Assembly (NCBI GenBank): GCA_900552365.1
Contig: URZP01000001.1
Coordinates: 1-57,013, forward strand
Direction: 5' to 3'
From: an uncultured Coriobacteriaceae bacterium
Lineage (GTDB): Bacteria; Actinomycetota; Coriobacteriia; Coriobacteriales; Eggerthellaceae
Length of the DNA: 57,013 bases
In this document: positions 3,924-20,505 of the stretch, piece after piece
Position numbering within the stretch: the stretch's first letter is position 1
Layout of the letters: each line of letters starts with the position of its first letter
Translations under genes and position numbers: made by a program
Notes under the pieces: generated by a model
The model's input: the letters and a program-made list of their open reading frames with translations, nothing else
What the model was told of the DNA's origin: nothing
Database searches by the model: none

Positions 3924-5185
3924 TGGAGGCAATTGTTTTCGATAAAGCCAACGCAATGCCCGCTCCGACGTGGCATCGCATGAAAACCAGCAGCACCACC
4001 ATCGAGATCCCCGCGGGTCTTGACGAGGCATACGCTGTTTCCGTTTCGGCAACCGACGGTGCGTTCGGCGAACCCGACGCGTTCGAGGCGGCCATCGCTT
4101 CGGCTCAGGCTGCATGGGAAGAAACCCACACTGAGCCGTACCTGACTACCGCACGCGTCGACGAGGCCAAAAACGATGACGACGGCCTGTACGGCGGCAC
4201 CGCGCTTTCCCGTTATCAGGCGGCGTCCGATGCCGTGGGCGAATCGCGCAGCCTTGCTGTCGCGTTCGAAACCGGCATCAGCACCGAGGTGTATTCCTTC
4301 ATGCGCGAGTACGCCGACGAACCTGTGGTCATCACCGCTTCGGCCGGCAAGTCGGTTAAGGCTACCCTTGACGTCACGGGCGTCGACGGGGCCATGAACT
4401 TTGCCGCGGTCGACGTCGTGGCCGGCGCTGGCTCCGACGTCACGCTCATCCTGAACGTCGATTCCCCCGATGGGGGCACCGGCGTGGTGGGCACGTCCGT
4501 TCGCGCCTTCGCCGATTCCGACGCGTCCATCCGCATTGTTCGCACTCAGACGCTTGACGACGGCTGGATCGACCTTGACGACATGGGTCTTTTCACCTGG
4601 GACGACGCAAAAATCGACGTGCGTCAGACCATCCTGGGCGCAAGCAACACCTTCACGGGCATCGGCGGCGATATCCGCGGCAATCGTTCGCGCATGGGCA
4701 TCGAGGCACGCTACCTGGGTCATGGCGAACAGGTTCACGACATCAACTACACCCTGCGCCACAATGGCGTGAAGACGCAGTGCAACATCAACTCCAACGG
4801 CGTTCTTGCTGGTAAAAGCAAGAAAACCCTGCGCGGCACCATCGACTTCGTCCGTGGCTGCAAGGGCGCTGAAGGCACCGAGCATGAAACCGTCCTGCTT
4901 GTCGACGACGACGTCGAGAACAAGTCGGTCCCTGTCATTCTATGCAACGAGGACGACGTCGCAGGCAATCACGGTGCGGCTATCGGCCACGTTCGCCCCG
5001 AGCAGATGTTCTATCTGGCAAGCCGTGGTCTTTCGCAGGAGGCGGCCGAGCAGATGTTCGTCCGCGCTATGCTCGAGCAGGCCGCAATCGATGCTCCTGA
5101 CCAGGCAAGCCGCGAGGGCGTTCTTCGTCTGGCAATCACGCTGGTCGACGGCTTCGACGCCGATTTCCTTGAAGAGGAGGCCTAA
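3923..5185 (+). CDS. sufD: Fe-S cluster assembly protein SufD
   Basis: The C-terminal beta-helix is a SufB paralogue ('AGNHGAAIGHVRPEQMFYLASRGL'). Its ATG overlaps the sufB stop by 1 nt. Confidence 0.9.
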   Translation: MEAIVFDKANAMPAPTWHRMKTSSTTIEIPAGLDEAYAVSVSATDGAFGEPDAFEAAIASAQAAWEETHTEPYLTTARVDEAKNDDDGLYGGTALSRYQAASDAVGESRSLAVAFETGISTEVYSFMREYADEPVVITASAGKSVKATLDVTGVDGAMNFAAVDVVAGAGSDVTLILNVDSPDGGTGVVGTSVRAFADSDASIRIVRTQTLDDGWIDLDDMGLFTWDDAKIDVRQTILGASNTFTGIGGDIRGNRSRMGIEARYLGHGEQVHDINYTLRHNGVKTQCNINSNGVLAGKSKKTLRGTIDFVRGCKGAEGTEHETVLLVDDDVENKSVPVILCNEDDVAGNHGAAIGHVRPEQMFYLASRGLSQEAAEQMFVRAMLEQAAIDAPDQASREGVLRLAITLVDGFDADFLEEEA

Positions 5186-5188
5186 GTC

Positions 5189-6439
5189 ATGGCATACCTG
5201 GTAAACGGTGTGGACATCGAGGCCAACCCGTACAAGAAGGACTTCCCGCTGTTCGGCCGTCATCCCGAGGTGGCGTTCCTTGACAGCGCCGCCACGGCTC
5301 AGCGCCCGGCTGCGGTGCTTGACGCTCAGCGCGAGTTCTACGAAACCATGAACGCCAACCCGCTGCGCGGTCTGTACGAGCTTTCCTACGAGGCCACCAA
5401 CGCCATCAACGACGCGCGAAAGCACATCGCTCGTTTCATCGGCGCGGGCGAGGACAACTGGCACGACATCGTTTTGTGCCGCAACACCTCCGAGGCCTTG
5501 AACCTGATCTCATTCTCGCTTTCCGAGATGGTGCTCAAGCCCGGCGACGAGGTTTGCATCACCATCATGGAGCATCATTCCAACTGCGTGCCATGGCAGC
5601 TTGCTTGCAAGCGCCATGGCGCCAAGCTGGTGTACATGTATCTTGACGAGGAAGGTCATCTGACCGAACAGGAGATGCGCGCGAAGATCGGCCCGAAGAC
5701 CAAGATCGTTTCCGCCATGCAGGTGTCGAACGTCTTGGGTGTTAAGAACGACGTCAAGCTGCTGGGTCAGATCGCCCACGAGTTCGGTGCGTACATGGTC
5801 GTCGACGGCGCTCAAAGCGTGCCGCATATGCCCGTGAACGTGACCGATCTTGACTGCGATTTCTTCGCCTTCAGCGGCCATAAGGTGTTCGGTCCCATGG
5901 GCATCGGCATCTTGTGGGGCAAGCACGAGCTGCTTGATGCAATGCCCCCGTTTCTGACGGGCGGCGAGATGATCGACTCCGTGTCCGAGCAGAGCGCCGT
6001 TTGGGCGCCCGTGCCCGAGAAGTTCGAGGCAGGCACGCAGGACGCTGCGGGCGCTTACGCCCTGGGCGCCGCGCTTACCTACGTCGAGCAGGTAGGTTGG
6101 GAGGCCATGCAGTCCCGTGAGGCCGCGCTGACCAAGTACTGCTTCGACGAGCTTTCGAAGCTCGACTTCATCAGCATTTACGGCCCCAAGGACCCCGCCG
6201 AGCACCATGGCGTTATCAGCTTCAACGTGAAGAACGTCCACCCGCACGACGTGTCGGGCATTCTTGATAGCGTTCACGTTGCCATTCGCGCCGGCCATCA
6301 CTGCGCGCAGCCGCTTATGTCCCAGCTGGGCTGCATGTCGAACTGCCGCGCGTCCATGGCCTTCTACAATGACAAAGCCGATATCGATCAGCTGATCGAC
6401 GGCCTGAAACTGGTTTGGAGCATGTTTGATGGCATCTAA
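5189..6439 (+). CDS. sufS: Cysteine desulfurase SufS (class II aminotransferase V)
   Basis: 'SGHKVFGPMGIG' marks the PLP lysine region and 'RAGHHCAQP' the active-site Cys loop. Confidence 0.95.
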   Translation: MAYLVNGVDIEANPYKKDFPLFGRHPEVAFLDSAATAQRPAAVLDAQREFYETMNANPLRGLYELSYEATNAINDARKHIARFIGAGEDNWHDIVLCRNTSEALNLISFSLSEMVLKPGDEVCITIMEHHSNCVPWQLACKRHGAKLVYMYLDEEGHLTEQEMRAKIGPKTKIVSAMQVSNVLGVKNDVKLLGQIAHEFGAYMVVDGAQSVPHMPVNVTDLDCDFFAFSGHKVFGPMGIGILWGKHELLDAMPPFLTGGEMIDSVSEQSAVWAPVPEKFEAGTQDAAGAYALGAALTYVEQVGWEAMQSREAALTKYCFDELSKLDFISIYGPKDPAEHHGVISFNVKNVHPHDVSGILDSVHVAIRAGHHCAQPLMSQLGCMSNCRASMAFYNDKADIDQLIDGLKLVWSMFDGI

Positions 6440-6863
6440 CATCTACACCGCGGCTCTTATGGAGCACAACGCGCACCCCGACTACAAGTACGACATTCAG
6501 GACGCTGACTTCGAGCACGAGGGCATCAACCCCAGCTGCGGCGACGAGATGGTCCTGAAGCTGAAGGTTGCCGACGGCGTCATCACCGAGGCTGCGTTCA
6601 CCGGCCACGGCTGCGCTGTCTCGCAGGCTTCCGCCGACATCATGGCCGACCTCATCACCGGTGAGACCGTCGAGGAGGCCAAGCGCCTGAGCGGCCTGTT
6701 CATCGGCATGATCCAGGGTAAGGAACTTTCCGACGACGATCGCGAGGACTTGGACGAGGCTGCCGAGCTCGAGAGCATTTCCCGCATGCCCGCCCGCGTC
6801 AAGTGCGCCGAGCTTGCATGGCGCACGCTCGATGGAATCATCGAAGAGAACAAGCTGCAGTAA
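6426..6863 (+). CDS. sufU: SufU-type (IscU-like) sulfur acceptor/scaffold
   Basis: Three conserved Cys contexts are present: 'NPSCGD', 'GHGCAVS' and 'RVKCAEL'. The gene overlaps the sufS 3' end. Confidence 0.9.
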   Translation: MMASNIYTAALMEHNAHPDYKYDIQDADFEHEGINPSCGDEMVLKLKVADGVITEAAFTGHGCAVSQASADIMADLITGETVEEAKRLSGLFIGMIQGKELSDDDREDLDEAAELESISRMPARVKCAELAWRTLDGIIEENKLQ

Positions 6864-6929
6864 TTCACCTGCAGTGACTCGCAGCTCGCCGATGCGCAGC
6901 GAGCGCTTCGCATGCTGTTTGAATCCGAG

Positions 6930-6965
6930 CGGCCCGTTCCCCCGCGATGGGAGGCGGGCCGTTTT
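6930..6965 (+). terminator. Rho-independent terminator after sufU
   Basis: A 7-bp stem CGGCCCG/CGGGCCG is followed by TTTT. Confidence 0.55.
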
Positions 6966-7107
6966 GCGTGCCGCCGCATGGTCCGATCATGTGCGCCCTT
7001 CCTTGAACCTCGCGTAAGCTTCCGCCGATTAGCCGTGCCCTCTACGCCGTGTTGTGCGAGAATAAGCCTCGACTAATACGAGCGAGTTTTTTCACGAGGT
7101 ACCATTC

Positions 7108-10100
7108 ATGCCGGCGCAATTCAACATCAGCGCGGCGGATCCGCATGCCGTCTCCCAGCTGCAGGGACATTTCGGATTGCCGCATTTCATCGCGACCACC
7201 ATGGCAAGCAGGGGAATAACCACCGTCGAGAAGGCGGAGCGGTTTTTGTCCCCATCGCTTGAGCGCGATTGGCTTGACCCATACCTTATCCCGCAAATCG
7301 ACAAAGTGGCCGATGCTCTTGAGGCCGCCGTCCGCGAGCACAAGCACATCGTGGTGTACGGCGACTTCGACGTTGACGGCATCTCGGCAACTGCCGTGCT
7401 CACACGCGGCTTGCGCACGCTGGGCGGTCATGTCACGCCGTTCATCCCGCGCCGTTTCGACGAGGGCTACGGCCTTTCCGCCGTGGCGTTCGAGCGCGTT
7501 CGCAAGCTCGATCCCGAGGTCATCGTCACGGTTGACTGCGGTATTTCCAGCAAGGTTGAAGTGGCCGACATCGTGGCGCAGGGCGTCGATGTGGTGATCA
7601 CCGACCACCACGAGCCCGCCGATTTGGTGCCCGATGGCGTGCCTGTGGCCGATCCTAAGTGCGGCTCGTCGTGTCCCAGCTCCATTCTTGCCGGCGTCGG
7701 CGTGGCGCTGAAGCTTGTCCAGGTGATGGGCGGCCGCTTCGGTTTTCCGCATTTGTGGCGCGACTACACCGACCTTGCCACCTTGGGCACGGTTGCCGAC
7801 CTTATGCCCATGCGCGACGAGAATCGCGCGCTGGTCAGCGACGGCCTTAAGCACATCAACGCGTCCCCGCGTCCCTGCATTGCGGCCCTTCTGGGCCGCT
7901 CGGGTGCGGCGGGCAAGCAGGTCACCGCAACCAACCTTAGTTTCTCGCTGATTCCGCGTTTGAACGCCGCCGGCCGCATGGGCGATGCGCAAATCGCCCT
8001 CGACCTGCTGATGACCGACGATTTCGATGAGGCATGCAAGCTTGCCGCCGAGCTTGAGACCGTGAACGACCGCCGCCGCGCAATCGAGGCCGAGCTTTCC
8101 GAGGTGGCTCGCGAGAAGGCCGCCGCCGTCTACCATGGCCAGCGTGTGCTGGTGGTGGCGGGCGAGGGCTGGCACGAGGGCGTGAAGGGCATCGTTGCCA
8201 GCCGCTTGGTGCACACTTACGGCGTTCCGTGCTTGCTGTTCACCATCGATGGCGACGAGGCGCGCGGAAGCGGCCGCACGGTTGGCCAGGTGAATCTGTT
8301 CGATGCCGTTGCTTCGACCGAAGACCTGCTCACCCGCTTCGGCGGCCATGGCGCCGCTGTGGGTGTCACGCTTCCTGTTGCGAACTTGGAAGAGTTCACC
8401 AAGCGCCTGTGCGATTACATGGACCAACTTCCTGAAGACGCGTTCCACCCGCTTATCGAGATCGACTCGATGGTCTCGCTTGACGAGCTGACCATCGAGA
8501 ACGTCGAGCTGATGGAGAAGTTGGCCCCGTTCGGCCAGGAAAACCGCGTGCCTTGCCTGTTGGCACGCGACGTCACCATGGCGAACTGCCGCGCGGTGGG
8601 CGCCGAGAAGAACCATTTCTCGTGCGCGCTTTCCGATGGCACGAACCGCGTGTCGGGCATTATGTTCCATTGCAATGACATCGATGAGCTCATGAAAACC
8701 TGCAACGTGGTGAATGCCGCGTTCGAGGTTCAGATTGACGAATGGCGCGGCCGTCGCACGGTGAAGGCCATGTTGAAGTCGCTTTCGCCCGCCGGCATGT
8801 GCGGCGCTCTTGCGGCCACGCTTGACCCGGGCAACACGCGTTTCGTCACCAGCCTGTTCGCCGCAAGCGACGAATCGCTGTGCGAGGACTGCATCGAAAG
8901 CTCGTCTGCCATCGAGGCGTACGAGGCCGATCGCACTTCGAACCGCGAGAAGTGGCAGCGCCGCGCGCAAAGCAATCCCGCCAAGCTGGAATCCGACATC
9001 ATCGGTGCCCTGATCGGCGACGGCTCGCTGCATGATTCGCAGCGCGAGGTGCTTGACCTGTTGGGCGAAGGCAAGTCGGTCATGGCCGTTATGGCCACAG
9101 GTCGCGGCAAATCGCTTACTTTCCATGTGCATGCCGCGATGACGGCGCTGCGCGATGGCAAGGCAAGCCTGTTCGTGTACCCGCTGCGTGCTCTTATCAC
9201 CGATCAGTCGTTCCACCTGAACGATGCGCTTTCCCGTTTCGGCCTTCAGATTGACGTGCTTACTGGCGAAAGCACCCCGAAGGAGCGCGAACACATTTAC
9301 CGCGCCATCGCCGACGGCTCAACCGACATGGTGCTGACCACGCCCGAGTTCTTGGAATACCACGTTGACGAGCTTGCCGTGGGCGATAGGTTCGGTTTCG
9401 TCGTGGTTGACGAGGCGCACCACATCGCGCAGTACCGTAACGGCAGCCGCGAGGCTTACGGCACCATTGGCAAGTCCATCGAGCGTTTGGGCAGCCCCAC
9501 GGTGCTGGCTCTTACCGCAACCGCCGACGGAAACGTGGCGCGTGACATCGCATCCATTCTGCCCATCGAGGCATGCGTTTTCGACCGAACCGCCCGTACC
9601 AACTTGGTGGTTGACGACAGGCGCGGCATGCGCGCCCGCGAGGACTACCTGGCGAAACTGGTGGCCACCGGCGAGAAGACCGTCGTGTATGTCAGCTCGC
9701 GCGAGCGTTCGATCACCGTTGCGCGCATCCTTCGCTCGAAGGTTGGCCAGCTTGCGCCGATGATCGGTTTCTACAACGCGGGCCTCGACCGCGCCGAGCG
9801 CACGCGCATCGAGGAGATGTTCCGCTCGGGCGCGCTTTCGGTTCTGGTGTCCACGTCTGCGTTCGGCGAAGGCGTGAACATCCCCGACATCAGGCACGTC
9901 GTGCTGTTCAATATGCCGTTCAACGAGATCGAGTTCAACCAGATGAGCGGCCGCGCGGGCCGCGACGGGCGCGAATCGTTCGTTCACCTGTTGTACAACC
10001 GCGGCGACGCCCAGCTGAACGAGACGGCGCTTGCCGGGGCGACGCCAGACCGCGACGTGCTGGTGCAGGTGTACCGCTATCTAACCGCGCGTCAGCGCAA

Positions 10101-10461
10101 CGCCGGTGACGTGTCGTTCGCGGCGGGCACTTCCGAGATCGCGTACGGCATCGATCCGAATAACCCGATGAGCGCCGACAGCGTCGAATGCGCCATCGCT
10201 GTCTTCCGCGAGTTGGGGCTTATCCAAACCCATGCCGAGTTCACCTCGGGTGAAGAGACGCGCACTGTCAGGGTGGAAAGCGGCCATCAGAAGGTCGACC
10301 TCACCGACAGTGTGCGTTACCGCGAGGGCATGGGCGAGCGCGCGATCTTCGACGAATACAAGCACCGCGCCATGGATGAGGACGCCTGCACCCTGCAGGG
10401 CCGCATTTCGGCTCCGATCGTTCCGGCCTGCGCCGAGACCGGCGACTGCCTGTGCTCGTAG
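7108..10461 (+). CDS. recJ: RecJ single-stranded-DNA exonuclease fused in one ORF to a RecQ-like SF2 helicase (1117 aa)
   Basis: N-terminal half: 'DFDVDG' and the DHH motif (nt 7603-7611), DHHA1 'GGHGAAVG', then an OB-like segment. C-terminal half: Walker A 'ATGRGKS' (about nt 9091), DEAH (9409-9420), 'LTATA', 'FGEGVNIPDIRHVV' and 'QMSGRAGRDG'. Confidence 0.85.
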   Translation: MPAQFNISAADPHAVSQLQGHFGLPHFIATTMASRGITTVEKAERFLSPSLERDWLDPYLIPQIDKVADALEAAVREHKHIVVYGDFDVDGISATAVLTRGLRTLGGHVTPFIPRRFDEGYGLSAVAFERVRKLDPEVIVTVDCGISSKVEVADIVAQGVDVVITDHHEPADLVPDGVPVADPKCGSSCPSSILAGVGVALKLVQVMGGRFGFPHLWRDYTDLATLGTVADLMPMRDENRALVSDGLKHINASPRPCIAALLGRSGAAGKQVTATNLSFSLIPRLNAAGRMGDAQIALDLLMTDDFDEACKLAAELETVNDRRRAIEAELSEVAREKAAAVYHGQRVLVVAGEGWHEGVKGIVASRLVHTYGVPCLLFTIDGDEARGSGRTVGQVNLFDAVASTEDLLTRFGGHGAAVGVTLPVANLEEFTKRLCDYMDQLPEDAFHPLIEIDSMVSLDELTIENVELMEKLAPFGQENRVPCLLARDVTMANCRAVGAEKNHFSCALSDGTNRVSGIMFHCNDIDELMKTCNVVNAAFEVQIDEWRGRRTVKAMLKSLSPAGMCGALAATLDPGNTRFVTSLFAASDESLCEDCIESSSAIEAYEADRTSNREKWQRRAQSNPAKLESDIIGALIGDGSLHDSQREVLDLLGEGKSVMAVMATGRGKSLTFHVHAAMTALRDGKASLFVYPLRALITDQSFHLNDALSRFGLQIDVLTGESTPKEREHIYRAIADGSTDMVLTTPEFLEYHVDELAVGDRFGFVVVDEAHHIAQYRNGSREAYGTIGKSIERLGSPTVLALTATADGNVARDIASILPIEACVFDRTARTNLVVDDRRGMRAREDYLAKLVATGEKTVVYVSSRERSITVARILRSKVGQLAPMIGFYNAGLDRAERTRIEEMFRSGALSVLVSTSAFGEGVNIPDIRHVVLFNMPFNEIEFNQMSGRAGRDGRESFVHLLYNRGDAQLNETALAGATPDRDVLVQVYRYLTARQRNAGDVSFAAGTSEIAYGIDPNNPMSADSVECAIAVFRELGLIQTHAEFTSGEETRTVRVESGHQKVDLTDSVRYREGMGERAIFDEYKHRAMDEDACTLQGRISAPIVPACAETGDCLCS

Positions 10462-10543
10462 CGTGCGCAGGCGGGTTGCTTGCGTTAGCTTGCTGAACGC
10501 GGCGGCCCGTGCGGGCGGCGTACGTCTTGTGCGGCTGCTGCGA

Positions 10544-10549
10544 TATAAT
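10544..10549 (+). promoter_or_regulatory. Perfect TATAAT box upstream of rel (candidate -10 element)
   Basis: A consensus hexamer in otherwise GC-rich DNA lies about 75 nt upstream of the rel ATG. I found no good -35 element. Confidence 0.3.
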
Positions 10550-10623: not shown

Positions 10624-12993
10624 ATGGCTGACGCGAAGGATTTGGCGGGCCTGACCTCCATCGCTTCCGATGCGCGCGGAAACGTGCTTGAGGAAAACGA
10701 CTACAAGGTTGGTCACGGTGCCCGCAGCAAGGGCGAAACCCCCGAAGAGCGTTTCGCTGTCCTGCAGGAAATGACCAAATCTTACCTTACCGAGGACGAG
10801 GAAGAGAAGCTCGTGGAGGCGTTCGCCTTTGCACGCAAGGTTCACAAGGGCCAGCTGCGCAAGAGCGGCGAGCCGTTCGTTGCTCACCCCGTTGAGGTTG
10901 CCATCATTTTGGCCGACCTGCGTATGGACGTCGAAACCCTGTGCGCCGCGCTTCTTCACGACACCATCGAGGACACCGAAACCACCGACCGCGATATCAC
11001 GCGCCTGTTCGGTGAGCGCGTCACCCAGCTGGTCGAGGGCGTCACCAAAATCACCCGCATCGAGGTGGAAAGCCTTTCCGACGAGCAAGCGGCAACCATC
11101 CGCAAGATGTTCGTGGCCATGAACCAGGACATCCGCGTGGTTGTCATCAAGCTCGCCGACCGTCTGCACAACATGCGCACGTTGTCGTCGCTTCGCGAGG
11201 ACCGTCGTATCTTCAAGTCGCGTGAGACGCTTGAGATCTACGCGCCCATCGCGCACCGTCTGGGCATCAACTCCATTAAGTGGGAACTAGAGGACCTGTC
11301 TTTCTACTACCTTGAGCCTGCGAAGTATCAGCAGGTCAAGCGCCTGGTTGCTGAAAGCCGCGCAACGCGCGAGGCATACTTGAAGCAGGTCATCGACCTT
11401 CTGCACGACGAGATGGAGAAGATCGGCGTCGAGGCCGAGATCATGGGCCGTCCCAAGCACTTGTACTCCATCTATCAGAAAATGACCAAGCGCGACAAGG
11501 AGTTCAGCGAGATCTTCGACCTGATCGCCGTGCGCTTGATCGTGAAGTCCGTCAAGGACTGCTACTCGGCGCTGGGCGCGGTGCATACGCTGTGGCACCC
11601 TATGCCCGGGCGTTTCAAAGATTACATCGCCATGCCGAAGTTCAACATGTACCAAAGCCTGCACACCACGGTTATCGGCCCGTCCGGCAAGCCGCTTGAG
11701 GTTCAGATCCGCACCGAGGAAATGCACCAGAAAAGCGAGTTCGGCGTCGCGGCTCACTGGCTGTACAAGGAAAACGGTGGCAAGCAGGGCAAGGACGTCG
11801 AGTTCGACAAACAGCTGGCGTGGCTTCGTCAGATGGTTGACTGGCAGGATGAAACCCAGGATTCGCGCGAGTTCCTGAAAGATCTGAAGGTCGACCTTGA
11901 TCCCGACGAGGTGTTCGTGTTCACCCCGAAGGGCGAGGTCAAGAGCCTGCGCTCGGGTTCCACTCCGGTCGACTTCGCCTACGCCATTCACACCGAGGTT
12001 GGCAACCACTGCGTTGGCGCCAAGGCCAATGGCAAGATCGTGCCGTTGTCGTACAAGCTGCAGATGGGCGACCGCGTTGAGATCCTCACGCAGAAAAGCG
12101 CCACGCCCTCGCGCGGCTGGCTGAGCATCGTCCGCACGCCGTCGGCGCGTTCGAAGATCAGGAACTACTTCTCGAAGGCAAACCGCGGCGACGATTTGCA
12201 GATGGGCCACGACAAGCTGATGCGCGAGATGCGCAAGCATGGCCTGGGCCTTTCGAACGCCCAGATGACGCGTGCGGTGAAAACCACCGCCGAGAGCATG
12301 GGCTACAAAGACGGCGACGACATGCTGGTGAACATCGGCGCCGGCAAGGAAAGCCCGCAGCATGTTGCCAACCGCATCCTGAAGCTGGTCGTCGACGACG
12401 GCAAGAAGGAAGCCGAGCGCCCCGCCATCGGCATGTCAACCATGGCAACGGGCAAGATGCCGCCCATGCTTACCAGCGTGAAGCGCCCGAAGCGTCGCGA
12501 GACGCATTCGGACACGGGCGTTGTGGTGAAGGGCTTGGACGACGTGCTGGTGCGTCTGTCGAAGTGCTGCAACCCGGTTCCCGGCGACGACATTTTGGGA
12601 TTCGTCACGCGTGGTCGAGGCGTTTCCGTTCACCGTGCCGACTGCCCGAACGCCAAGGATCTGCTGCGCGAGCCCGAGCGCATCATTCAGGTTGAATGGG
12701 AGAAAGATCCCGCTGTTTCGACGTCGTACAAGATCGACGTTTACATCGAGGCTCTTGACCGTATGAACCTGCTGCGCGATGTCGTTGCCGTTCTGTCCGA
12801 GGAGGGCGTCAACGTTTTGAACGCCTCCACTTCGACGCAGCGCGACGACATGGTTACCATGCGCTTCCTGTTCCAGGTTTCCGATGTCGAGCATGTTGAC
12901 GACATCATCGCCGAGCTTTACGACGTCGACGGTGTCTTCGAAGCCCGCCGCATGAAGCCCGGTGAGAGCGTGGGACGCCGAGACAGTAATTAA
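10624..12993 (+). CDS. relA: Bifunctional (p)ppGpp synthetase/hydrolase Rel (RelA/SpoT homologue)
   Basis: The HD domain 'HPVEVA...LHDTIEDT', the synthetase region 'YRSLHTTV'-like 'YQSLHTTVIGP', and TGS and ACT C-terminal regions are present. It follows recJ, as in many Gram-positives. Confidence 0.95.
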   Translation: MADAKDLAGLTSIASDARGNVLEENDYKVGHGARSKGETPEERFAVLQEMTKSYLTEDEEEKLVEAFAFARKVHKGQLRKSGEPFVAHPVEVAIILADLRMDVETLCAALLHDTIEDTETTDRDITRLFGERVTQLVEGVTKITRIEVESLSDEQAATIRKMFVAMNQDIRVVVIKLADRLHNMRTLSSLREDRRIFKSRETLEIYAPIAHRLGINSIKWELEDLSFYYLEPAKYQQVKRLVAESRATREAYLKQVIDLLHDEMEKIGVEAEIMGRPKHLYSIYQKMTKRDKEFSEIFDLIAVRLIVKSVKDCYSALGAVHTLWHPMPGRFKDYIAMPKFNMYQSLHTTVIGPSGKPLEVQIRTEEMHQKSEFGVAAHWLYKENGGKQGKDVEFDKQLAWLRQMVDWQDETQDSREFLKDLKVDLDPDEVFVFTPKGEVKSLRSGSTPVDFAYAIHTEVGNHCVGAKANGKIVPLSYKLQMGDRVEILTQKSATPSRGWLSIVRTPSARSKIRNYFSKANRGDDLQMGHDKLMREMRKHGLGLSNAQMTRAVKTTAESMGYKDGDDMLVNIGAGKESPQHVANRILKLVVDDGKKEAERPAIGMSTMATGKMPPMLTSVKRPKRRETHSDTGVVVKGLDDVLVRLSKCCNPVPGDDILGFVTRGRGVSVHRADCPNAKDLLREPERIIQVEWEKDPAVSTSYKIDVYIEALDRMNLLRDVVAVLSEEGVNVLNASTSTQRDDMVTMRFLFQVSDVEHVDDIIAELYDVDGVFEARRMKPGESVGRRDSN

Positions 12994-20199: not shown

Positions 20200-20505
20200 A
20201 TGACGGAACGCGTGGTTGGCGTGGCTGTTGGCGGTTTGCGTTCGACTATGGGTTGTACTCGCGGTAGCTGTCCATTGCGGTTCCCTCGTGGTTTTCTCGA
20301 ACCCGCTAATATAGGCAACATCCGCCGCAAAGGCGTGCATCTGGGTTATGTCCCGCGTGCCAGGAACGCCACCATCGCTCAGCTGTTTCGTTTCGGCCAC
20401 AACAACGTTTTCGAGTGCCGCGTTATGAAGGTGGACAAAAGCGCCGATCCGCGCAATCAGGTTCACGTGGGCATCTACGTGGTCGACAAGCGCAAGAAGA
20501 ACTAG
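20200..20505 (+). CDS. Small HIRAN-like domain protein (tentative)
   Basis: 'VVGV', 'LEPAN', 'HLGYVPRARNATIAQL' and 'VHVGIYV' follow the HIRAN pattern ([IV]xG[VT]...EPxN...lGYvPr..A..iA...). The start is uncertain, there is no clear RBS, and an antisense ORF of similar length exists. Confidence 0.35.
   Translation: MTERVVGVAVGGLRSTMGCTRGSCPLRFPRGFLEPANIGNIRRKGVHLGYVPRARNATIAQLFRFGHNNVFECRVMKVDKSADPRNQVHVGIYVVDKRKKN

Follow-up and report, generated by a model that had tools for sequence, protein, structure and literature searches.

In the RecF(OR) pathway of Escherichia coli, Deinococcus radiodurans and Bacillus subtilis, the textbook helicase and nuclease, RecQ and RecJ, are separate proteins. 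RecQ-family motors move 3′–5′ on single-stranded DNA (ssDNA), and RecJ degrades ssDNA 5′–3′. Here, we describe a gene (plus strand, 7108–10461) on a 57,013-nucleotide (nt) piece of DNA from an uncultured Coriobacteriaceae bacterium (contig URZP01000001.1; the whole stretch is referred to as the window) that encodes the same two types of activity, a superfamily 2 (SF2) RecQ-type motor and a DHH-family 5′–3′ ssDNA exonuclease. In contrast to the separate proteins of RecF(OR), the fusion in the window is one chain, its helicase belongs to a paralogous clade, and a true RecQ is often encoded alongside it. We consider it probable, mainly from sequence comparison, that the gene product is a single-chain helicase–nuclease at the ancestral recJ–relA locus, built from an intact RecJ, a linker that once held a HIRAN domain, an intact RecQ-like motor and a zinc-less hairpin/winged-helix C-terminal domain (CTD), and that it would couple unwinding to degradation.

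Several described systems invite comparison. WRN and Dna2 (or Sgs1–Dna2) share the concept, with a RecQ-type or superfamily 1 (SF1) motor and a nuclease working on one substrate in resection or fork processing; the WRN nuclease is a DnaQ-like 3′–5′ exonuclease N-terminal to the helicase, Dna2 combines a PD-(D/E)XK nuclease with an SF1 helicase, and neither has a shared origin with the RecJ–helicase fusion. AddAB, AdnAB and RecBCD, like the fusion, are presumed to yield 3′-tailed ends by processive resection, but unlike this single chain they are multi-subunit enzymes with SF1 motors and PD-(D/E)XK nucleases. Mycobacterial RqlH is reportedly a stand-alone protein of 691 amino acids (aa) that has retained a Zn-binding module and has no RecJ attached. 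It represents a RecQ-like clade that lacks the classical arrangement of the C-terminus (PMC3378886). Among RecJ proteins, the long RecJ of Bacilli (PDB 8y30) occupies the same recJ–relA locus and has a C-terminal winged-helix domain that is homologous by profile comparison, but in place of the complete two-lobe helicase of the fusion it carries a stub of ~85 aa, which is weakly lobe-2-like and lacks helicase motifs. A long RecJ–HIRAN–helicase form belongs to the same gene family, shares the monophyletic helicase clade and is alike in its RecJ, helicase and CTD parts, but has a HIRAN (3′-end-binding) domain of ~100 aa that the window protein lacks.

The gene is one open frame of 1117 codons with no internal stop, and the claim of a first-pass annotation of the window that it encodes a single polypeptide with a complete RecJ was borne out. 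The RecJ equivalog model TIGR00644 (NCBIfam) matches aa 25–558 with 481 bits against a cut-off of 396.9, and DHH motifs I–IV, the GGH motif of DHHA1 and the OB-fold domain are all present. The DHH (aa 166–168, nt 7603–7611) and DEAH (aa 768–771, nt 9409–9420) motifs lie exactly where that annotation had placed them, all the other motifs that it quoted were found, and the domain search that it recommended recovered DHH, DHHA1, RecJ_OB, DEAD and Helicase_C far over their Pfam cut-offs (Table 1). In an alignment of 33 fusions (25–83% identity), RecJ residues D86, D88, D90, D143, D166, H167, H168, D231 and G412–H414 do not vary, and conservation of helicase motifs 0, I, II and VI is 90% or higher. 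Judged by these residues, both catalytic centres, the RecJ nuclease and the helicase motor, look intact. The fusion is the sole recJ of its own genome. A scan of aa 540–665 for an internal start of a separate helicase gave no in-frame start with a convincing Shine–Dalgarno motif, and no promoter or terminator signal near the gene exceeded the level of shuffled sequences in a scan.

The core of the helicase half is RecQ-like rather than generic, as had been proposed at first pass. Its 37 best PDB sequence matches all belong to the RecQ family (Cronobacter RecQ 4tmu, E 4.7e-34; E. coli RecQ 1oyw; RECQ1, WRN, RECQ4, RECQ5 and BLM), followed by a clear drop and then Hel308. Alignment to 4tmu identified the RecQ-type core motifs (motif 0, motif Ia PLxxLxxDQ, DEAH, and motifs V and VI) and ended at aa 969, right past motif VI; the aromatic-rich loop is only partly conserved (HHIAQYRNGSREAY vs HCISQWGHDFRPEY). 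The best NCBIfam models for this half are recQ and recQ_fam, of which only positions 8–343/349, corresponding to the two RecA lobes, are covered. In a maximum-likelihood tree of helicase cores, all fused helicases form one clade (SH-aLRT 94) on a long stem, apart from a second clade (97) of canonical RecQ, three proteins with an N-terminal helicase and the Bacteroidota helicases encoded next to recJ. Five relatives from three families encode both a canonical RecQ (439–471 bits, 652–693 aa, with a Cys cluster) and the fusion (166–189 bits), and the same pairing occurs in a Peptococcaceae metagenome-assembled genome (MAG). Because the fused helicases form a separate clade and coexist with canonical RecQ, they are not orthologous to the RecQ of the lineage; on these comparisons, the module is a RecQ-like SF2 motor of a distinct paralogous clade.

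The first-pass annotation had also noted that the C-terminus does not look like canonical RQC or HRDC domains. This holds in sequence, by both Pfam and hhalign, but not entirely in fold, which resembles the hairpin-plus-winged-helix layout of the RecQ core. The Zn-binding subdomain PF16124 gave no match in the window protein, whose Cys residues after aa 955 are not conserved, whereas the canonical RecQs of relatives do have the Cys cluster; RQC (PF09382) showed no sequence or profile similarity (Pfam; hhalign 1.9%); and HRDC (PF00570), which is optional in the family, gave no match, the protein ending ~60 aa beyond the winged helix. An AlphaFold2 model of the CTD, built with 11 sequences (predicted local distance difference test, pLDDT, 84), comprises a helical hairpin, a three-helix winged helix with a β-hairpin wing, two more helices and a disordered tail. 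Foldseek matches of this model are all winged-helix proteins (PadR, MarR, TFE-alpha, Cdt1) with weak E-values of 0.03–0.3. For a model of lobe 2 plus the CTD (aa 835–1117; pLDDT 86.8), the best matches were RECQL5, RECQL4, RECQ1 D2-Zn-WH and bacterial RecQ, over 210–312 columns with high root-mean-square deviation, the alignment to RECQ1 D2-Zn-WH extending over about 290 columns, also with high deviation. In these predicted models, the CTD layout mimics the RecQ catalytic core without zinc. A derivation of the CTD from a diverged RecQ Zn/RQC/HRDC region was rejected at the sequence level (hhalign 1.9%), the fold being only generically winged helix. Near the C-terminal end, nearly all fusions have an R-P-I-x-P motif (aa 1104–1117; 10417–10458) with a nearly invariant P1106, and this region, which is predicted to be disordered, may serve as a partner-binding peptide. 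The Cys-rich tail of the window protein, CAETGDCLCS, is unique to this species.

The view that the fusion is peculiar to this genome was not sustained, as it is class-wide and old and in its usual form also contains HIRAN. When the helicase half was compared with 5.8 billion proteins, more than 100 clusters with the same Pfam string were recovered (1104–1138 aa, 57–98% identical), several of them on contigs of 0.2–3.9 Mb; where the databases name these clusters, it is only as 'single-stranded-DNA-specific exonuclease RecJ' (Gordonibacter, Eggerthellaceae, Coriobacteriaceae). The helicase half was detected in 294 of 301 sampled Coriobacteriia genomes (245/247 among the high-quality ones), nearly always within open frames of about 1100–1300 aa, and in seven more genomes from other classes of the phylum. 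Among 1.84 billion representatives, 791 proteins matched at E ≤ 1e-30; of the best 150 of these, most are 1077–1309 aa long with the helicase C-terminal. Named carriers of the fusion include Adlercreutzia, Slackia, Senegalimassilia, Collinsella, Gordonibacter, Candidatus (Ca.) Oleimmundimicrobium (Ca. Aquicultoria) and Peptococcaceae/Bacillota MAGs.

A few loci in this survey deviate. In one Coriobacteriia member (L039; G175:C5, ORF 4521–7085), on a 415-kb contig, the gene is covered by an 855-aa frame only, and this copy may be a frameshifted or N-terminally disrupted fusion. The recJ locus of a 'Treponemataceae bacterium' (L051) is Collinsella-like, with the same length and query identity as Collinsella loci, and that of a 'Bacteroidaceae bacterium' (L091) is Clostridium-like and groups with a Clostridium locus in the RecJ tree; both contigs look mis-binned or mislabelled. 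Matches in Bacteroidota (Muribaculaceae, Alloprevotella, Tannerella; L068, L069, L070 and L072) were rejected as fusions, as they represent two adjacent genes, with a separate RecQ-family gene 3–65 nt past recJ. This adjacency is an independent genomic link of both activities. The RecQ-family gene in question has RecQ_Zn_bind ~200 aa downstream of Helicase_C, an unusual spacing, and the Alloprevotella genome encodes a second, canonical RecQ elsewhere.

HIRAN sits between RecJ_OB and the helicase in all 13 long forms tested (about 1200–1290 aa), which come from other Coriobacteriia orders, Ca. Oleimmundimicrobium (class Ca. Aquicultoria), a Peptococcaceae MAG and further MAGs. The linker of the window protein gave no Pfam match to HIRAN (PF08797), and its alignment to HIRAN-bearing forms shows a clean deletion in which the HIRAN-flanking helices are kept; the idea of a cryptic HIRAN in the linker was rejected on these two grounds. 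Close relatives of the window protein also lack the domain. In the helicase tree, HIRAN-less forms are nested among HIRAN-bearing ones, and HIRAN has therefore been lost more than once; the HIRAN-bearing forms are predicted to be ancestral, with a loss in the lineage of the window. A small open reading frame elsewhere in the window (20200–20505, plus strand; L159) has a weak sub-threshold Pfam HIRAN match (E 0.007–0.017, profile positions 46–85). It was rejected as a split-off HIRAN, as an HMM (hidden Markov model) of the fusion-type domain finds nothing in any frame of the window.

Beyond the intact fusions, the CTD is connected to the Pfam family PF10141 (ssDNA-exonuc_C). On the window protein, PF10141 scores below cut-off (14.3–17.6 bits against a gathering threshold of 26.4, E 0.0034), and relatives score 18–21 bits, with recurrent sub-threshold matches at profile positions ~98–185. 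Using an alignment built from the PF10141 domains of Bacilli genomes, hhalign paired the fusion CTD with the C-terminal half of PF10141 (98%, E 3e-13) and helicase lobe 2 with its N-terminal half (81%, E 1.2e-5), while mismatched control pairs were negative (E 0.07–0.2). A CTD HMM matches the extreme C-terminus of ~25 RecJ proteins from Clostridia, Negativicutes and other Bacillota (666–795 aa, E down to 4e-15), and the Bacilli-derived PF10141 HMM reciprocally finds two fusions. By these profile matches, the CTD and the C-terminal half of PF10141, which forms the tail of RecJ in Bacilli, are homologous. The solved RecJ 8y30 (757 aa), which contains PF10141, is the best match of known structure to the RecJ half (E 1.5e-93); it is absent among the top 50 Foldseek matches of the CTD model and of the lobe 2 plus CTD model. 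As the CTD profile found 8y30 only with L086 included, which makes that match not independent, the link between the CTD and 8y30 is drawn from the profile–profile and reciprocal HMM matches.

An intermediate state is found in Thermotogota. The RecJ of a Petrotogaceae MAG (L100:5953–9117; 1055 aa) aligns over both lobes and the CTD (hhalign 98.9%, E 1.6e-17), and its module is a pseudo-helicase that has none of the Walker A, DExH and motif VI residues left. The forms are graded, from active helicase through dead helicase and lobe-2 stub plus CTD (PF10141) to CTD only. In this order, the helicase module seems to have decayed step by step, leaving PF10141 as the tail of Bacilli RecJ and short tails on many RecJ proteins of Clostridia and Negativicutes. 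In a tree of RecJ cores, fused forms do not group together but are interspersed among unfused ones from Bacillota, and the deep nodes are weak. Because of this interleaving, combined with the monophyly of the fused helicases, the comparison favours an old fusion with repeated decay. We advance only tentatively, and with some doubt, the wider scenario in which the RecJ–helicase fusion would be ancestral in much of Bacillota, Actinomycetota and Thermotogota, the PF10141 tail (Bacillus-, Staphylococcus- and Lactococcus-type RecJ, 8y30) and the short Clostridia/Negativicutes tails would be successive relics of a lost RecQ-like motor and winged helix, and the protein would be, where the motor is intact, a self-sufficient single-chain enzyme for ATP-driven resection of the 5′ strand. 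Some Clostridia RecJ proteins (L073, L114, L115, L125, L084 and L088; 684–832 aa) have C-terminal extensions of 100–250 aa with no or partial match to Pfam, the fusion modules or PF10141; these may be further decayed or different appendages.

How the two halves might cooperate can be outlined from the properties of their families. As the 3′–5′ motor and the 5′–3′ nuclease, although of opposite polarity, advance the same way along a duplex, at an end or at the 5′ edge of a gap, a tethered pair can unwind and feed the 5′ strand in cis. The motor would bind the 3′-ended or template strand and translocate 3′–5′, the hairpin/winged-helix CTD probably binding duplex DNA or acting as a separation element that helps to split the duplex. 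The displaced 5′-ended strand would be passed to the OB domain of the same chain and from there be threaded into the active site of RecJ. RecO and RecR would then load RecA on the product, either a widened gap or a 3′ tail of ssDNA. The window's own genome encodes both RecO and RecR; its assembly, which is incomplete, gave no RecF match over cut-off. Nascent strands at stalled forks could be trimmed in the same way, and HIRAN in the long forms would add recognition of 3′-OH ends. The likely function is coupled 3′–5′ unwinding and 5′–3′ degradation for end or gap resection. The sequence analysis itself demonstrates the architecture, the conserved catalytic residues of both halves, the phyletic spread and the paralogy to RecQ, and polarity, coupling and pathway are inferred; the hard-wired resection machine imagined at first pass is, to this extent, a reasonable reading.

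Three other explanations have to be weighed against this one. An artefact, in which mis-assembly, a missed stop or a frameshift joined adjacent recJ and helicase genes, is conceivable in a fragmented MAG (166 contigs, 85% complete), and the Bacteroidota loci show that the two genes can be truly adjacent and separate; against it, the identical single-frame architecture recurs in hundreds of independent assemblies, single-contig genomes among them, the linker sequence is conserved among close relatives, and base composition is unbroken over 8500–9300, with no break at the RecJ/helicase junction. This conservation across independent assemblies makes a join or frameshift very unlikely; it answers the concern about an assembly join raised at first pass, and we give an artefact next to no weight. 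A second proposal, implied in the first-pass annotation, is that the organism's own RecQ, the helicase of the RecFOR pathway, became fused to RecJ and replaced stand-alone recQ. Its clearest refutation is the coexistence of the fusion with canonical RecQ in G046, G062, G002, G048, G050, the Peptococcaceae MAG and G759, the last being one of two further genomes from the genus of the window (the second has the fusion only), together with the separation of the fused helicases from canonical RecQ in the tree. In addition, the fused helicase reaches 177 bits against the recQ_fam cut-off of 219.8, and its C-terminus shows no sequence relationship with the Zn/WH/HRDC region of RecQ (hhalign 1.9%). 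The check for a stand-alone recQ gave a divided result: none was found in the window's own assembly, where the other recQ_fam matches are two RhlE/CshA-type DEAD-box RNA helicases, but this assembly is only 85% complete, and about half of the family's genomes have one. Specifically, a RecQ-family match over cut-off occurs in 69 of the 121 genomes of the family, nearly all of which carry the fusion, so that about 45% lack such a match; as a few of the 69 lie in frames of ~1100–1350 aa, the fusion itself included, the stand-alone count is somewhat lower. Coexistence and tree largely refute a replaced RecQ, and we regard it as quite improbable.

The main rival holds that the helicase module is chiefly an accessory of RecJ, either an ssDNA translocase that clears SSB or secondary structure ahead of RecJ or a DNA- or partner-binding platform that targets RecJ to gaps and forks. 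That dead and truncated modules have persisted suggests an additional role in binding or targeting: the module of Petrotogaceae is still full-length, with its Walker A, DExH and motif VI residues destroyed, Bacilli keep only a lobe-2-like stub plus the CTD, and many Clostridia keep the CTD only, so that non-catalytic parts have been retained by selection, while canonical RecQ persists in many fusion-bearing genomes. Coriobacteriia-type fusions, on the other hand, conserve every ATPase/helicase motif at ≥90% over 25–83% identity, which speaks for an active motor, and RecQ-type cores that combine a hairpin with a winged helix typically unwind DNA. An accessory role is therefore, to our mind, a minority prospect, clearly behind a resecting helicase–nuclease and well ahead of a captured RecQ. 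Several observations nevertheless count against a coupled helicase–nuclease. Polarity and unwinding are assumed from family membership, yet the module misses the RecQ-family cut-offs (TIGR00614, 177.1 vs 219.8 bits; TIGR01389, 182.6 vs 640.2), and Pfam finds no RQC, HRDC or RecQ_Zn_bind in the window protein even at E ≤ 1. Motif-dead and truncated modules persist in other lineages, where RecJ works without an active motor, and the module may thus have a non-motor role. Canonical RecQ is kept alongside the fusion in about half of the family. Nor is the fusion the only possible resection machine, as contig C55 (2482–7079) of its own genome encodes two adjacent open reading frames (about 943 and 1292 aa), each with a PDDEXK_1 nuclease domain, an AddAB/AdnAB-like pair also found in four relatives (one match reads through a TGA). 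With regard to origin, a CTD profile free of PF10141 members did not match 8y30 by HMM-to-sequence search, and the weak deep nodes of the RecJ-core tree mean that the fusion may have spread horizontally. Finally, a literature search returned no paper on a RecJ–helicase or RecJ–HIRAN fusion, on PF10141 or its origin, or on 8y30, and the RecJ–RecQ-like fusion seems to be unstudied.

The coordinates of the gene, its domains and its downstream neighbour are collected in Table 1. The gene lies after a suf/iscU cluster and before relA/spoT. Of 80 named recJ loci, fused and unfused, from Actinomycetota and Bacillota, 58 have a RelA homologue immediately after recJ on the same strand, and this conserved neighbourhood places the fusion at the ancestral recJ locus. 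Upstream of relA, the 162-nt spacer that separates it from the fusion gene contains a TATAAT hexamer (10543–10548), which may point to a promoter of relA's own; a consensus scan called no full promoter there.

Table 1. Features of the RecJ–helicase fusion gene and the adjacent gene, in window coordinates.
Feature	Position	Strand	Evidence and remarks
Whole gene, RecJ–(linker)–RecQ-like helicase–CTD	7108..10461	+	1117 aa plus stop; GAGG Shine–Dalgarno-like motif 9–12 nt upstream of ATG
RecJ DHH catalytic domain, aa 80–228	7345..7791	+	PF01368, E 2.7e-20; DFDVDG (86), VDCG (142), TDHH (165), GTVAD (227)
RecJ DHHA1, aa 345–438	8140..8421	+	PF02272, E 1.6e-12; GGHGAAVG (412), GGH at 412–414
RecJ OB-fold, aa 452–557	8461..8778	+	PF17768, E 3.3e-24
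Linker, aa 558–643 (86 aa)	8779..9036	+	No Pfam match; site of HIRAN in most relatives
Helicase RecA-like lobe 1, aa 644–810	9037..9537	+	PF00270, E 3e-22; Gln 645 = motif 0
Lobe 1 motifs			Walker A ATGRGKS 663–669, Ia YPLRALITDQ, DEAH 768–771, TATA 803; alignment to RecQ 4tmu and conservation
Helicase RecA-like lobe 2, aa 846–954	9643..9969	+	PF00271, E 2.7e-24; motif V SAFGEGVNIPDIRHVV (917), motif VI QMSGRAGRDG (945)
CTD, aa 955–1117 (163 aa)	9970..10458	+	Hairpin, winged helix, two helices, disordered tail; conserved D-S-x-R-Y-x-E-G and R-P-I-x-P motifs
relA/spoT-family gene, directly downstream	10624..12993	+	Conserved recJ–relA neighbourhood

As a class-wide covalent fusion, the protein offers a ready-made single-chain system for the coupling of 3′–5′ unwinding with 5′–3′ degradation, and a comparison of forms with and without HIRAN could show how recognition of 3′ ends by this domain fits in. 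Prominent human-gut Actinomycetota (Eggerthella, Gordonibacter, Adlercreutzia and Collinsella relatives) have no RecJ other than the fusion, and because databases name it plain "RecJ", pathway reconstructions for these organisms miss a helicase. The homology to PF10141 may also explain the hitherto unexplained tail of Bacillus-type RecJ, giving a testable origin and function for the C-terminal RecJ domain in Bacillus-type model organisms.

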